Assembly (NCBI GenBank): GCA_965228125.1
Contig: OZ245791.1
Coordinates: forward strand, 483,894-547,893
Direction: 5' to 3'
Origin: Victivallales bacterium
Lineage (GTDB): Bacteria > Verrucomicrobiota > Lentisphaeria > Victivallales > GWF2-38-69
Length of the DNA stretch: 64,000 nucleotides
Below are positions 55,037 to 61,142 of the stretch, one piece after another. How positions within the stretch are numbered: position 1 is the first letter of the stretch; each line of letters opens with the position of its first letter. Under the pieces are notes generated by a model, which ran no database searches, was not told the origin of the DNA, and worked only from the letters and a program-made list of their open reading frames with translations. A program made the position numbers and the translations under genes.

Positions 55037-56359
55037 TTAGTGAGTTAAGCCGAGAAGTATAGATTCTGATTCTGGAATAAATACTCCTTTACTTTCATCT
55101 CTTCCCTGTAGAATTATTTTCCGATTATCGGATTCTTCTGATCTTAGAGCTTTATTTCTGAATTCGCCTATTTTGCCTGTTTGTTTTCTATCAATCAGCA
55201 ACACGAGCTTTGTGTCTTTAAAATCACTCATCATAGCATAGTCGCCACTACTATCTCCGCCGACAATTAAAGGTCCGTATCCATATTTCTTTACAAGAAA
55301 CCTTTTTATATTTTCAGTTTTACCTTCGCTCTGTGTCTGAGTATAACATTCTCTATATGAATCTGTTATAGTTCCAAAACTATCTCTTTCAAGTTCCATT
55401 GCAATAACATTTTCAGTAGGAATATTATATCCATATTTTTTATTTGAAGCAAAAAGTTGAACAACATCAACAAATGATGCCGAGCAAATATATACATCAA
55501 ACCCGTTCTTCATGAGCGTAGAGTAAAGATCCTGCATTTCTCTGATAGTTCTAAGACCAGTTCTGTATGAAACTGTTACCACGCCTGTTTTTCCTCTAAG
55601 TTCAACAGGGCTGGAGTCACTAACAATTGTCAACGGTTGCTTAAGGCCGTAATCTATAGACCTCTCAGCCATAGACTGTACTTCTTCTTTACTCATCCCT
55701 CTAAAGAGATAGAGCACCCAAGGATAACTGATATCGTGGCTGAAAGAGCCGCTGATTGCATCATAAAGATACATCATCTTTATATTAAAATCTTTATATT
55801 GAGGAGTCCCTTTAATTTCATTAAGCGACATATTGCCTTTTAAGCCGCTATAGTTGGAGTAAAGATATTCGTAATCTTTTATGAGGTCTGATGAAACCAA
55901 GGCTATATTAACCTGGCTGCCGTCACGGCTATTAAATTCTTTATTGAAGGGCGTTTGAGGGATATCCTTTGTAATAACTTCATAGAATTTTTTGGGACTC
56001 ATTTTAAAAATGAGATTCTGGAGCTGATATCTTAAAAGGTTTTCTTCGACGTCATTTATTATCGATGTATTATCCCAGTCAAACACAGCATACGGTTTCT
56101 TGTCGGGGTTATATTTTGGATTATGGTCACCGTATTCAGAAATAATGCTGACTATTGAGTTATATGCATTTATATTCCAATTATTTTTCTGCAATTCAAA
56201 ATTCTTGGCCGTTGATTTGTTGCTTAAAGTTCTAACAGAATCTCCTACCAATTCAGTACTTTGATTTGTAGTGGCACATCCCAAAAACAGCAAAGAGGTA
56301 AACGCAATTCCAAAAGAGATTGCTGTCTTTATAGTATTTTTTCTATTGCATAGAATCAT
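55037..56359 (-). CDS. HAD-superfamily phosphatase lipoprotein (phosphorylcholine phosphatase PchP-like)
   Basis: Lipobox FLGC; motif I AVFDWDNT, motif II VYICSAS, motifs III/IV GK...GGDSSGD; 22 nt downstream of eutH. Confidence 0.78.
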   Translation of the reverse strand: MILCNRKNTIKTAISFGIAFTSLLFLGCATTNQSTELVGDSVRTLSNKSTAKNFELQKNNWNINAYNSIVSIISEYGDHNPKYNPDKKPYAVFDWDNTSIINDVEENLLRYQLQNLIFKMSPKKFYEVITKDIPQTPFNKEFNSRDGSQVNIALVSSDLIKDYEYLYSNYSGLKGNMSLNEIKGTPQYKDFNIKMMYLYDAISGSFSHDISYPWVLYLFRGMSKEEVQSMAERSIDYGLKQPLTIVSDSSPVELRGKTGVVTVSYRTGLRTIREMQDLYSTLMKNGFDVYICSASFVDVVQLFASNKKYGYNIPTENVIAMELERDSFGTITDSYRECYTQTQSEGKTENIKRFLVKKYGYGPLIVGGDSSGDYAMMSDFKDTKLVLLIDRKQTGKIGEFRNKALRSEESDNRKIILQGRDESKGVFIPESESILLGLTH

Positions 56360-56381
56360 ATTTGAGTACCTTATTAAAGGA

Positions 56382-57476
56382 TTATGCTTCTGCTCTGACT
56401 TTTTTCTTCCTGCAAAAAATAAATTTTGCTACTAACACAGCAGTAATGCCAGCAGTGAATTTACCAACAATCATCGGGAATATCATATCTTTGTTCACCC
56501 CTGCAGTAAATCCAAGATGATCACCAAAAACAAAAGCCGCACTCACAGCAAAAGCTATATTCATTACTTTCCCGTTTTCATCCATTTTTTTGACTAATCC
56601 CAGCATAGGTATCGCATTTGCCAGAGTAGCTATCATTCCTGCCGCTGCCACATCGTTCATTTTTAGAATGCCGCCCATTTTCATAAGTGGCTTTTCAAAG
56701 GTTCTCGTAATAAAATGAACAAGTGGAAACGCTCCTGCTAAAGTAATGGAAATTAGTCCGATTATCTGAATACCGTCCGATATCGGCGCCATTCCCGGAA
56801 TTACCACTACACCTGTAAGGGTCTCGATTACTATTGCAGCCAATGCTAGCGTAATGATTATAACAACAGCCTTGCCAAATATTGTAAACCCATCAATCAT
56901 TTTGTTTGGGGCCTTCCATAAACCTATAATAATAAGCACAGAGAAAATCACTATAGGAATCAGATTCATTAATATCATTTTCAGGCCAAAACCTGCAACA
57001 AGCCCCCCAACAAAAGTACCTAAAGGAATCGTCACAACTCCTGCCAGAATGCCCTTTGCCAAAAACGGCCTGTCTTCTTTGTCCAGAATCCCCAGAGCAA
57101 CCGGAATTGTAAAGACTATTGTAGGCCCGAGCATTGACCCTAAAATCAGCCCGGCAAACAATCCAACGTCGGGACTTCCGGCAAGTTGCATAGCCAGAGG
57201 ATACCCCCCCATGTCATTAGCTAACAAAGTAGTGGCAAACATAGCCGGATCCGCACCAAGAAACTGATAAACAGGCCCTACGACAGGCCTTAAAATTTTC
57301 GCAAGGACAGGAGCCAAAGAGACAACTCCAACCATAGCCATGGCGAGAGCTCCCATAGCCATAAAGCCCTCTTCAAATTTAGCGCCATAACCATATTTGT
57401 TTCCTAAACATTTATCTATGGCTCCGACAAACATAAAGAAGACCATGATAAATAAAATAATCTTATTAATATCCAT
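56382..57476 (-). CDS. eutH: Ethanolamine transporter EutH
   Basis: FEEGFMAMG, GADPAMFA.TLLANDMGGY, GPTIVFTIPV, VSAAFVFGDHLGF. Confidence 0.95.
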   Translation of the reverse strand: MDINKIILFIMVFFMFVGAIDKCLGNKYGYGAKFEEGFMAMGALAMAMVGVVSLAPVLAKILRPVVGPVYQFLGADPAMFATTLLANDMGGYPLAMQLAGSPDVGLFAGLILGSMLGPTIVFTIPVALGILDKEDRPFLAKGILAGVVTIPLGTFVGGLVAGFGLKMILMNLIPIVIFSVLIIIGLWKAPNKMIDGFTIFGKAVVIIITLALAAIVIETLTGVVVIPGMAPISDGIQIIGLISITLAGAFPLVHFITRTFEKPLMKMGGILKMNDVAAAGMIATLANAIPMLGLVKKMDENGKVMNIAFAVSAAFVFGDHLGFTAGVNKDMIFPMIVGKFTAGITAVLVAKFIFCRKKKVRAEA

Positions 57477-58315: not shown

Positions 58316-59680
58316 TTAGCTTACAAAAATTGAGGCGTCTCCAGCTTTCTTTGTCAATCGGCCATTTTCTAATATCCCCATTCTTTCGAGCCAGAGTTCG
58401 AATTCTTTAATGGGTCTCATTTTCAACAATTGCCTTAAAGTAGCCGTTTCATGATATCCAGTGCACTGATAATTAAGCATTACGTCGTCCCCATGCGGAA
58501 TACCCATAAAGTAGTTGCATCCGGCCGCAGACAGCAGCACGGCCAAATTCTCGATATCATTCTGGTCTGCCTTCATATGATTTGTATAGCACGAATCGCA
58601 CCCCATTGGAATTCCAGTAAGTTTGCCCATAAAATGATCTTCCAGCCCAGCTCTTATAACCTGTTTGCTATCATACAGATATTCTGGTCCTATAAATCCA
58701 ACTACAGTATTTACCAGGAACGGATTATATTTTTTGGCAAAGCCATAGCATCTGGCTTCTAAAGTCACCTGATCCGCATCAAAATGACTTTCCGAAGAGA
58801 GTTCAGATCCCTGACCTGTTTCAAAATACATTACATTCGGCCCCGAAGCAGTGCCTTTTTCAAGCGCTAAAGAATAAGCCTCCTGAATCAAATCGCCGCT
58901 TATGCCAAACCCGCTATTGCCTTTCTCTGACCCGGCAATACTTTGAAAGACCAGATCGAGAGGAACTCCTTTTTTCATGCATTCGATCTGAGTGGAGACA
59001 TGCGCTAAAACGCAAATCTGTGTCGGAATGCTCCATTTACTTTTAAATCCATCAAAAAGCCTTAGGACTTTGCTTACGCTTTCAACCGTATCATTAACAG
59101 GATTAAGGCCTATAACTGCATCCCCAACGCCATAGCTTAGCCCTTCCATCAATGAAGCCGTTATTCCTTTAATATCATCTGTCGGATGATTTGGCTGAAG
59201 CCGGGAAGCAAGTATGCCGGATTCCCCTATTACGGTATTGCAATGCGCAGTTATTCTTATCTTTGAAGCCGCATATATCAGATCAAGATTAGTCATAAGC
59301 TTGGTAACTGCTGCTATCATTTCAGCAGTAAGGCCTTTACTGATCCTTTTTATGGAAGTTCCATCAGAATCATCACTTAAAATCCATTCCCTCAAATCCG
59401 ATACAGTCCAATTCTTAATTTCTGAATATATTTCAGCATCGACCATTGATTCAATGATTCTTGTGACTTCATCCTTATCATAAGGCACTACAGGGTTGTT
59501 GCGCAAATTCTGCATTGTAAGACTGCTCAGCACTATTTTAGCAGCAACTCTTTCTTCGGAATTAAGCGCTGCTATTCCTGCGAGCTTATCGCCTGACTTT
59601 TCTTCATTAGCTTTGGCCAAAACTTCCTTTACAGTTTTAAAGCTGTATGACCTTCCAAATAACTTGGTTTTGAGTATCAA
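58316..59680 (-). CDS. eutB: Ethanolamine ammonia-lyase large subunit (AdoCbl-dependent)
   Basis: [55 protein letters not shown] start. Confidence 0.97.
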
Positions 59681-59717
59681 ATTCTTACCCTCCCCTTTTC
59701 TGTTGATTGACTATATG

Positions 59718-61142
59718 TTAATTCTTTTCGAAAACTAAAGTTTTAATCACGACCGGCAGCACGCTTCCATTCGCAAGTGGATTCCCCACGTCTATATAAT
59801 TGCCGTTATCGACAGAAACACTGTCAATACACACAATATCTTTATTATATCCCAAATCAGTAAAGATTGTCTGCCCCAAAACTTTTGCAATATCGGACTC
59901 GACCAGAACAAAAATCAGGAATGGAGTTTCTTTGTATTCTTTTAGCCCAACAAGTATCTCTTTGCTTAGGCTTTTTATGTACTTAAACGAATGATTGTCT
60001 TCCCCCTTAAAGGCTACGGCAATCTGTTGGAATTTGTCACCAACTTTAAACCAGTCAAGTTTTTTCCTAATCGCTTCTCCGATAAAGCATAAAGCTTCCT
60101 CTTCTCTATTTAACTTCAAAATTGGAATATTTTTTAGAGGGAAAAGATTTTTATTGTAGAAAATAGTGCTGCCGCTTATTTCAGTTGTATGAGAACCAGC
60201 GCCGATTACTGTAGCCCTCATAGTTTCATATGGCTTAAGCACTTTATATTTTTTTACAATCTCGGATTTACTAATCTCTCCTCCGAGGATTACTCCTATG
60301 TCTCCATATTTTAAAATATCTTCATCAGTTCCATATATTAAATCAGCAACCCCTCCAGAAAAAGTAACAACATCAATTTTGCAATCGTCCGATATGCTGT
60401 GATTAGTTACTATAGTTTTAAAAACATCGCTTTTGGGAGTAATATTCAGAGCCATCCCTAGAATTTTTGACATTTCATGGGCTATGCTATAAATGGTCTC
60501 AGTTTTAATCGTTTCTCCCTCTAGAATCTTAAATGAGTTGAATTCGGCAAGTTTCTTGATTTTAGGTGCCACATACAGGACTTTCAGATTTTTATCTAGC
60601 CTGATGAGTCTTCCTCCTATATCGAGACATCCAACATCTATCAATTCTCCATTCTTAAAAACGGAAATGTTAGTCGTTCCGCCGCCAATATCCAAATTAG
60701 CCACGGTGCAGCCCAGCTCATCTGAAATTCTATCAGCTCCGGCTCCTTTCCCAGAAATTATGCTTTCCAAATCAGGCCCGGCCGTGGCCACCACGAAATC
60801 CCCCGCAAATTCGGACAAAAATTTAGCTACATTTTCAGCATTGTCCTTTCTGGAAGTTTCGCCTGTAATTATTACCGCGCCAGTTTTAATGTCATGAGGA
60901 TTAACTTTTAAATCTTTATATTCTTCTGATATTATTTCTGCCAACTGCAGCGCATCTATCCCGCTACTTGAAAGAAGAGGGGTGAAATAAATTTTTCCCC
61001 TCTTCACTATTTTCTTGTCAACAATTTTGATTTTAGGGACATTGAATACAGATGCCGTATTTTCAATCAATAACTCACTGAAAACGATCTGTGTTGTTGA
61101 TGTCCCTACATCTATGCCTACACTGATGATTTCTTCCTGCAT
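59718..61142 (-). CDS. eutA: Ethanolamine ammonia-lyase reactivase
   Basis: [57 protein letters not shown]. Confidence 0.95.

Follow-up and report, generated by a model that had tools for sequence, protein, structure and literature searches.

A PchP-like lipoprotein phosphatase gene at the end of a shell-less eutABCH operon in a Victivallales bacterium: a candidate phosphoethanolamine phosphatase

Genes at the locus and the HAD protein

We analysed a stretch of 64,000 nucleotides from a Victivallales bacterium (Verrucomicrobiota, Lentisphaeria; GenBank assembly GCA_965228125.1, contig OZ245791.1, positions 483,894 to 547,893), which we call the window. On its minus strand lie five co-directional genes in the order eutA-eutB-eutC-eutH-HAD. 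The first four encode ethanolamine ammonia-lyase, its reactivating factor and an ethanolamine transporter, and the last encodes a HAD phosphatase. The gaps calculated from the gene coordinates are 37, 20, 21 and 22 nt, exactly as given in an initial annotation that was made from the sequence alone. The last gene, called the HAD gene below, is the main subject of this report. The five genes and the signal of the HAD protein are:

59718..61142, minus strand: eutA, ethanolamine ammonia-lyase reactivating factor, 474 aa (PF06277, 603.5 bits; NF007992, 649.8 bits, cut-off 598)
58316..59680, minus strand: eutB, large subunit of the lyase, 454 aa, TTG start (PF06751, 718.5 bits; NF011649, 681.3 bits)
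57498..58295, minus strand: eutC, small subunit of the lyase, 265 aa (PF05985, 291.4 bits)
56382..57476, minus strand: eutH, ethanolamine transporter, 364 aa (PF04346, 498.1 bits; NF011666, 574.8 bits, cut-off 482)
55037..56359, minus strand: PchP-like HAD phosphatase of the 4GXT family, 440 aa, candidate extracytoplasmic phosphoethanolamine phosphatase (PDB matches 4gxt_A and 4as2)
56276..56359, minus strand: signal peptide and lipobox of the HAD protein, residues 1-28 (...LLFLG-C28), read from the translation

The scores of EutA, EutB, EutC and EutH are far over the curated Pfam and NCBIfam cut-offs. The HAD gene occurs as a single copy in the genome. We infer that eutABCH and the HAD gene are co-transcribed. 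A scan for promoter- and terminator-like sites found no terminator-like site between eutH and the HAD gene, and a comparison with Rfam found no riboswitch or other RNA within positions 50000-64000.

The initial annotation described the last gene product as a lipoprotein with HAD motifs, and both parts of this description hold. The motifs DWDNT (residues 94-98), ICSAS and GK...GDSSGD and the segment SYPWVLYLFRGMSKEEVQ are all present in the translation. In the N-terminus, MILCNRKNTIKTAISFGIAFTSLLFLGC, basic residues are accompanied by a hydrophobic stretch of 15 residues and a lipobox-like F-L-G-C28. Applying the lipoprotein (lipobox) rule, we read this region as a lipoprotein signal, i.e. the protein is predicted to be exported and lipid-anchored.

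The HAD protein misses the curated HAD cut-offs (PF12710, 18.9 versus 27 bits; TIGR01488, 29.9 versus 45 bits), and both models cover only residues 273-378. The link to PchP, the phosphorylcholine phosphatase of Pseudomonas aeruginosa, therefore rests on PDB searches. With phmmer, the first match is 4GXT from Anaerococcus prevotii (E-value 8e-82, residues 54-433 of the HAD protein) and the next is PchP (4AS2/4AS3, E-value 1.9e-15), while phosphoserine phosphatases appear only at E-values of at least 0.025. A profile made from 32 diverse homologues matches 4GXT with an E-value of 2.2e-115 and PchP with 4.8e-23. The match to PchP falls into three segments, which hold motif I (PchP residues 6-48), motif II (90-205) and motif III (237-301).

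Structure comparison gave the same ranking. The AlphaFold2 model has a mean predicted local distance difference test (pLDDT) score of 89.0, with residues 1-50 below 50 and disordered, and consists of a Rossmann-like core and a cap domain. Foldseek ranks 4gxt first (E-value 1.1e-42; template modelling (TM) score 0.82 for the query and 0.94 for the target; root-mean-square deviation 2.1) and PchP 4as2 second (E-value 1.2e-15; TM score 0.52 and 0.68; 19% identity). The top 40-odd matches are all HAD phosphatases. PchP is the closest characterised relative by phmmer, by profile and by structure.

PchP is periplasmic and hydrolyses phosphorylcholine, phosphorylethanolamine and p-nitrophenyl phosphate (pNPP). 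Its reported residues are 31DMDNT35, S166, K242 and 261GDTPDSD267, and alkylammonium is bound by E42, E43 and 82YYY84 (PMC3170909). Among the 32 homologues of the HAD protein, the invariant residues are D94, W95, D96 and T98 in motif I, S295 in motif II, K347, G368, D369, S370, G372 and D373 in motif III, and also D103 and E106. S295, K347 and G368-D373 align with PchP S166, K242 and 261GDTPDSD267. The acidic pair E42/E43 aligns with E105/E106; of these two, E106 never varies among the homologues, and E, Q or G occurs at position 105. The 82YYY84 region was left unaligned by HMMER; the HAD family has a conserved Y197-L198-Y199 just upstream of SYPWV, but their equivalence is unproven.

The HAD protein is apparently an active, exported, Mg-dependent HAD phosphomonoesterase. 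On the identity, the TM scores and the distance between the two phmmer E-values given above, it is a homologue but no orthologue of PchP, and falls into the distinct 4GXT subfamily. The term "PchP-like" in the initial annotation fits the full-length homology, seen in all three motif segments, and the aligned acidic pair, but not a claim of orthology. Both proteins are exported HAD enzymes with a related motif I (DMDNT in PchP, EC 3.1.3.75, and DWDNT here), a motif II serine, a motif III lysine with GDxxxD, and the acidic pair. However, the window protein is roughly 90 residues longer, has a larger cap and is a predicted lipoprotein, whereas PchP is soluble in the periplasm and is part of a choline regulon rather than of eut. 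The entry 4GXT is described as a "conserved functionally unknown protein" and belongs to the same family as the window protein. Its deposited chain begins past the signal/linker region.

Recurrence of the HAD gene beside ethanolamine genes

We scanned one genome per species, which gave 391 loci with relatives of the HAD protein, and examined the best 80 with flanks of up to 10 kb. The family has at least 586 loci in all, of which the analysis covers these best 80. Genes in the flanks were found by tblastn, using the window's own Eut proteins and two Eat permeases taken from the loci. The 80 loci are not independent, since 23 of them are Streptococcus sanguinis-like, so we also grouped them by record titles into 23 genus-level groups. 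EutA, EutB, EutC, EutH or Eat occurs in the flank in 58 of the 80 loci and in 17 of the 23 groups. The nearest such gene is at most 500 nt from the HAD gene in 18 loci, and direct adjacency is found in 7 groups. The linkage noted at one locus in the initial annotation therefore recurs widely, and with two non-homologous ethanolamine transporters.

At least five different orders of the HAD gene and eut or Eat genes occur across lineages. In the Burkholderiales (Cupriavidus, Acidovorax, Pseudorhodoferax and Lampropedia) the order is Eat-EutB-EutC-HAD. All nine Paenibacillus loci have the HAD gene directly followed by an Eat permease (TIGR00908, 486.5 bits, cut-off 381.75). EutH and HAD are adjacent in a Neisseria, in a Leptotrichiaceae metagenome-assembled genome (MAG) with the order EutG-A-B-C-L-H-HAD-EutQ, and in the window. 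A Fusobacteriaceae MAG (locus L023) has EutA-B-C-L-M-M-EutE-HAD-EutT...EutH. In Azonexus/Dechloromonas, eutHABC lies on the opposite strand, 3.5 kb from the HAD gene. Oral streptococci of the S. sanguinis type have the HAD gene between a gene for an EutS-like bacterial microcompartment (BMC) protein/EutP and cobalamin genes (CobT-type PF02277, a class I/II aminotransferase and a GHMP kinase), with EutA about 9 kb away.

A maximum-likelihood tree calculated from 28 HAD proteins groups the window protein and its counterpart from a Victivallales MAG as sisters (support 100/99), and the adjacency of EutH and HAD needs three separate changes on this tree.

Where eutBC does not lie within 10 kb of the HAD gene, EutB usually occurs elsewhere in the genome. 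We searched 22 genomes for EutB (20 with an unlinked HAD gene and two Paenibacillus with Eat only), of which two were unscorable, and the same search was positive in one of 14 well-known genomes used as a control. EutB was found in 19 of the 20 scored genomes, which include the two Eat-linked Paenibacillus; one of these matches is a fragment of only 48 residues. A Treponemataceae MAG has the HAD gene and no EutB in its genome. Genes for choline utilisation are absent from the recurrent neighbour clusters of the HAD gene, of which only the top clusters were annotated.

Export appears to be common in the family. The full HAD open reading frame (ORF) was recovered for 79 of 82 tblastn-positive loci, namely 77 of the 80 examined loci, one further locus (L150) and the window. 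On reading the N-termini, we saw a lipobox (e.g. LVACG, LSAGC, LLGAC or GGCA) or a Sec-type signal in nearly all 79, including those of the first Fusobacteriaceae and Leptotrichiaceae MAGs. The family that contains the Fusobacteriaceae MAG has the HAD protein in 10 of 61 genomes. Among seven further Fusobacteriaceae loci, two encode a signal peptide and have the order EutL-HAD-EutE.

Some other neighbours of HAD genes are recorded here as separate observations. In Brevibacillus laterosporus, the HAD gene is immediately preceded by one for a dCache_1 methyl-accepting chemotaxis protein (L031:7665-9755, plus strand), which has a homologue near the Hathewaya HAD gene. HAD loci of an Azonexus MAG (L067:13245-14072, minus strand) and a Veillonellaceae MAG (L037:7432-9156, plus strand) contain BMC genes, namely an EutK-like gene and an ORF that combines a Nuo51/4Fe-4S (RnfC/PduS-like) region with BMC domains. 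The phosphatase thus accompanies BMC-type loci in Rhodocyclales and Veillonellaceae.

Proposed role and competing explanations

We think it fairly probable that the HAD protein is an extracytoplasmic phosphoethanolamine phosphatase that feeds EutH and EutBC. Relatives of this protein are encoded next to ethanolamine genes in many unrelated bacteria, so it probably releases ethanolamine from phosphoethanolamine before uptake. Outside the cytoplasmic membrane, it would convert phosphoethanolamine, and possibly other amino-alcohol phosphates, into ethanolamine and phosphate. EutH would then import the ethanolamine, and adenosylcobalamin (AdoCbl)-dependent EutBC, kept active by EutA, would split it into acetaldehyde and ammonia. 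The strongest single argument is that the HAD gene lies beside EutH, beside the non-homologous Eat and beside the lyase in independent lineages, with ethanolamine as the sole common factor. Phosphoethanolamine as the substrate and the physiological role are deduced from these gene contexts and from homology. The initial annotation had proposed that an extracytoplasmic phosphatase feeds the lyase without a microcompartment, and both the kinship with PchP and the recurrent linkage support this. That annotation also named lipopolysaccharide head groups as a source of ethanolamine, which is pure speculation.

The genome can apparently complete the ethanolamine pathway, judging by its genes for adenosyltransferases, Pta and an EutE-like aldehyde dehydrogenase. 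The last of these is in the window, 10.5 kb from the eut operon:

43028..44497, plus strand: stand-alone acylating acetaldehyde dehydrogenase, EutE-like (TIGR02518, 493.6 bits; cut-off of 620 not reached)

Its product matches the N-terminal half of AdhE with 573.9 bits and is 45% identical to EutE of the Fusobacteriaceae eut locus. This dehydrogenase is likely to catalyse the next step after the lyase. Together with a conventional Pta (PTA_PTB match of 337.8 bits, at 1986599-1987585 of the genome), it would convert acetaldehyde to acetyl-CoA and acetyl-phosphate. The genome has three CobA-type adenosyltransferases, and no PduO/EutT-type adenosyltransferase was found in it.

A broader version of the proposal is more tentative, and we stop just short of believing it. 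This version holds that exported HAD proteins of the 4GXT type are a widespread, unrecognised first enzyme of ethanolamine use, a dedicated phosphoethanolamine phosphatase that was recruited independently beside EutBC, EutH or Eat in Bacillota, Pseudomonadota, Fusobacteriota, Thermodesulfobacteriota and Lentisphaerota.

Several observations weigh against the proposed role or its extension to the family. No eut or Eat gene lies within 10 kb in 22 of the 80 HAD loci, and these include the closest relatives, i.e. 11 Clostridium, Hathewaya and a Victivallales MAG (59% identity). Viewed from the lyase, the linkage is rare: the HAD gene occurs in only one of the 80 loci with the closest EutB (the Leptotrichiaceae MAG), so the phosphatase is an accessory of a minority of eut loci. 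No HAD orthologue was found in the two same-genus genomes, and in a family-level relative (genome G007) eutABCH and the HAD gene are on separate contigs. The main substrate of PchP is phosphocholine, and the conserved acidic pair would suit either head group. Finally, the promoter and terminator scan gave no clear promoter or terminator delimiting the transcript: it found 47 promoter-like sites versus 33 expected and 8 terminator-like sites versus 7.1 expected, with the best promoter-like site at 62815..62788.

To these points we add the remaining five of the seven further Fusobacteriaceae HAD proteins, which have no signal peptide and so cannot work in the periplasm. In four of these (L253-L256, 366-371 aa), the catalytic motifs are intact, but E106 is replaced by Q or L, SYPWV by ACLWEF, and YLY by YLH. 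Three of these four loci have the order EutH-EutQ-HAD. Given these members, the family is not uniformly extracytoplasmic, and this signal-less, cap-altered, cytoplasmic subclade may do something else. Of all the findings, it speaks most strongly against applying the model to every member of the family.

A first alternative is an exported phosphatase that is broad or prefers phosphocholine and that mainly serves phosphate scavenging or choline release; the place of the HAD gene next to eutH would then have little to do with the lyase. PchP, the only characterised relative, is named for phosphorylcholine and also cleaves pNPP. The 22 loci away from eut and Eat genes fit this explanation, as do the housekeeping neighbours in Clostridium and Hathewaya. 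These neighbours are GlmS, GlmM, a phosphotransferase system and another HAD protein, and give no functional hint. Moreover, a general phosphatase, PhoX, does the same job in Phaeobacter (PMC10132767). However, the HAD gene is linked to EutBC, EutH or Eat genes in 17 of the 23 groups and in several independent gene orders, which speaks against this alternative. The presence of EutB in 19 of the 20 scored genomes whose HAD gene has no eutBC beside it also argues against it, as does the lack of choline-utilisation genes in the annotated top clusters. We consider this explanation unlikely.

The adjacency in the window could also be a neutral rearrangement, with the HAD gene transcribed alone and without a functional tie to eut in this organism. 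The sister HAD gene in a family-level relative is unlinked to eutABCH, which fits this explanation. By contrast, the gap of 22 nt on the same strand has no terminator-like site, and the EutH-HAD adjacency arose independently in a Neisseria and in a Leptotrichiaceae genome. The chance that the adjacency is neutral therefore seems small.

A role in cobamide supply was suggested to us by the S. sanguinis-type loci, in which the HAD gene lies between eut and cobalamin genes. The protein would then dephosphorylate a corrinoid or a lower-ligand precursor during salvage, and its link to eut would reflect the need of EutBC for AdoCbl. This is very improbable. In Burkholderiales and Paenibacillus the HAD gene is found with EutBC and/or Eat, with no cob genes among the partly annotated neighbours. 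An extracytoplasmic location is at odds with nucleotide-loop assembly, which is cytoplasmic, and the conserved acidic pair matches the amine site of PchP.

Finally, the HAD protein could be a non-orthologous phosphate acetyltransferase that replaces EutD or PduL. The HAD gene of the Fusobacteriaceae MAG lies between EutE and EutT, roughly the position that PduL has in Firmicutes, and the signal-less Fusobacteriaceae subclade would also fit such a role. In 12 Fusobacteria genomes, Ravcheev et al. 2019 (PMC6620236) found the Eut BMC cluster to encode a PF12710 HAD protein that shares 28% identity with PchP, and their prediction for it was a third type of phosphate acetyltransferase. For the window protein this is scarcely credible, because its lipoprotein signal would keep it away from acetyl-CoA, its set of phosphatase motifs is complete, its genome encodes the conventional PTA_PTB protein mentioned above, and Paenibacillus couples the HAD gene to a permease only. 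We know of no HAD-fold acyltransferase.

Origin of the operon, its surroundings and significance

The initial annotation noted that there are no BMC shell genes in the window, and this extends to the whole genome. The BMC domain PF00936 had no match in the single-contig genome (3,081,560 bp, 92% complete), the same search being positive in 2 of 14 control genomes, and tblastn of the genome found no EutL, EutT or EutQ.

The operon nonetheless looks like a stripped-down BMC-type eut locus. Its EutB is most similar to BMC-type forms, with 76-79% identity to the closest homologues, from a Victivallales MAG and Clostridiaceae. EutL occurs in 78 of the 80 loci with the closest EutB, and the remaining two are contigs shorter than 5 kb. 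In the loci with EutL, EutH is located 6-8 kb downstream of EutC. The EutC proteins of these 80 loci are longer at the N-terminus by a median of 32 residues (type MxEKELKxxVExxL), which we take to be a BMC encapsulation peptide. This extension is missing from EutC of the window and of a Victivallales MAG (L081), which would fit a secondary loss of the microcompartment.

In a search of 30 relatives of the same order, EutB was confined to the window's own family, where 4 of 9 genomes have it. A tight eutA-B-C-H cluster is also found in a same-genus genome (84-93% identity), whose contig ends inside eutH, and in the family-level relative (G007:C7:46000-64000). The latter cluster is preceded by a PRK11768-type (SrkA/YihE-like) kinase gene, and to its 3' side are genes for a Zn-alcohol dehydrogenase, a class I/II aminotransferase and a group II intron reverse transcriptase. 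From these comparisons, we picture the operon as a BMC-type eut locus that was reduced to eutABCH in this lineage, and that the phosphatase gene would have joined in this species.

Shell-less eut operons as such are established (review PMC5821096; PMC9426561). The short ones of P. aeruginosa (eat-eutBC) and Acinetobacter baumannii likewise combine the lyase with a transporter and have no shell, but the window operon retains eutA and eutH and adds a phosphatase. The pathway logic also has a precedent. In Phaeobacter, PhoX cleaves phosphorylethanolamine extracellularly, and the ethanolamine is then taken up (PMC10132767) by the EtoX TRAP (tripartite ATP-independent periplasmic) transporter and catabolised. 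However, PhoX is a general phosphatase of the Pho regulon rather than a dedicated HAD protein, and both the transporter and the catabolic route differ, the latter having no EutBC.

Upstream of the operon are two further genes:

61238..62689, minus strand: NhaC-family transporter, 95 nt upstream of eutA (TIGR00931, 402.2 bits, cut-off 370)
63039..63668, plus strand: TetR/CecR-type regulator, divergent (PF00440, 60.8 bits; PF09209, 50.4 bits)

The NhaC-family gene may be co-transcribed with eutA. It is found near eut in none of the 80 loci with the closest EutB, and its product has no relative in the PDB. The TetR/CecR-type gene is the sole candidate regulator adjoining the operon. The genome has two AraC-type (PF12833) genes, both outside the window, in agreement with the absence of eutR from the window in the initial annotation. 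A search for the ANTAR domain gave no match, but the control of the same search was silent too (0 of 14 genomes).

On the other side, a gap of 138 nt separates the HAD gene from a pair of genes that we consider unrelated to eut:

52859-54898, minus strand: NahK-type N-acetylhexosamine 1-kinase homologue (E-value 7e-69 to PDB 4OCU/4WH1), then a GalE/TviC-like NAD epimerase

The APH-like first gene was considered as an ethanolamine or choline kinase, and this was ruled out by its homology to NahK (E-value 7e-69) and by the GalE-like epimerase beside it. The pair resembles part of a salvage route of the lacto-N-biose/galacto-N-biose type. Converging on it are two tandem, paralogous genes for major facilitator superfamily transporters (49797-51263 and 51400-52875, both plus strand). 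The best NCBIfam match of both is the phosphate:H+ symporter family, at about 167 bits and far under the cut-off of 610. Further along, a 168-aa ORF (46592-47098, minus strand) adjoins a glycogen phosphorylase gene. The similarity of this ORF to asparaginases is confined to their N-terminal half (model positions 25-185 of 348), and it may represent a truncated gene or a remnant. Outside the window, at 346614-348719 of the genome, a gene for a CobA-type adenosyltransferase adjoins one for a second EutE-like acylating aldehyde dehydrogenase (37% identity to the Fusobacteriaceae EutE). This pair may mark another B12-dependent, aldehyde-forming pathway.

The initial annotation stated that the gene arrangement is not known from characterised eut loci. 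This holds in that we found no paper giving the HAD gene a role as a phosphatase in ethanolamine use. However, the gene itself had already been reported in Fusobacterium eut loci. In addition to the cluster described by Ravcheev et al., a study of F. nucleatum (mBio 2024, PMC11796344) includes "HAD" as one of the eut genes but gives it no function, and finds the genes from eutA onward to be induced by ethanolamine. The same study names phosphorylethanolamine as a precursor of ethanolamine in the placenta, and its passages on this point draw no connection to HAD. As in those loci, the Fusobacteriaceae and Leptotrichiaceae members found here are PchP-related HAD genes inside eut clusters, located between EutE and EutT or after EutH. 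They were compared with the published F. nucleatum gene by description and are not tied to it by name. The Fusobacterium loci are of the BMC type, unlike the shell-less operon of the window. Reviews trace ethanolamine solely to the action of phosphodiesterases on phosphatidylethanolamine, and the 2018 review (PMC5821096) mentions neither phosphoethanolamine nor a phosphatase anywhere. A search of literature full text, with subscription journals and supplements outside its scope, found no paper that gives the eut HAD protein a role as a phosphoethanolamine phosphatase. The kind of enzyme and the logic of the pathway are thus already known. What appears to be new is the coupling of a dedicated, exported 4GXT-type phosphatase to eut, its occurrence in several phyla and the disagreement with the published assignment.

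Ethanolamine use is a much-studied trait in colonisation and virulence. If the proposed role is true, an upstream step would be added to the ethanolamine pathway, and the structural-genomics orphan 4GXT would gain a function. The niche of eut carriers would widen to phosphoethanolamine, a compound abundant in host tissue. On the broader version of the proposal, the published assignment as a third phosphate acetyltransferase would not hold for the exported forms, and phosphoethanolamine would be a real substrate for many carriers in the gut and the mouth, S. sanguinis and its relatives included.

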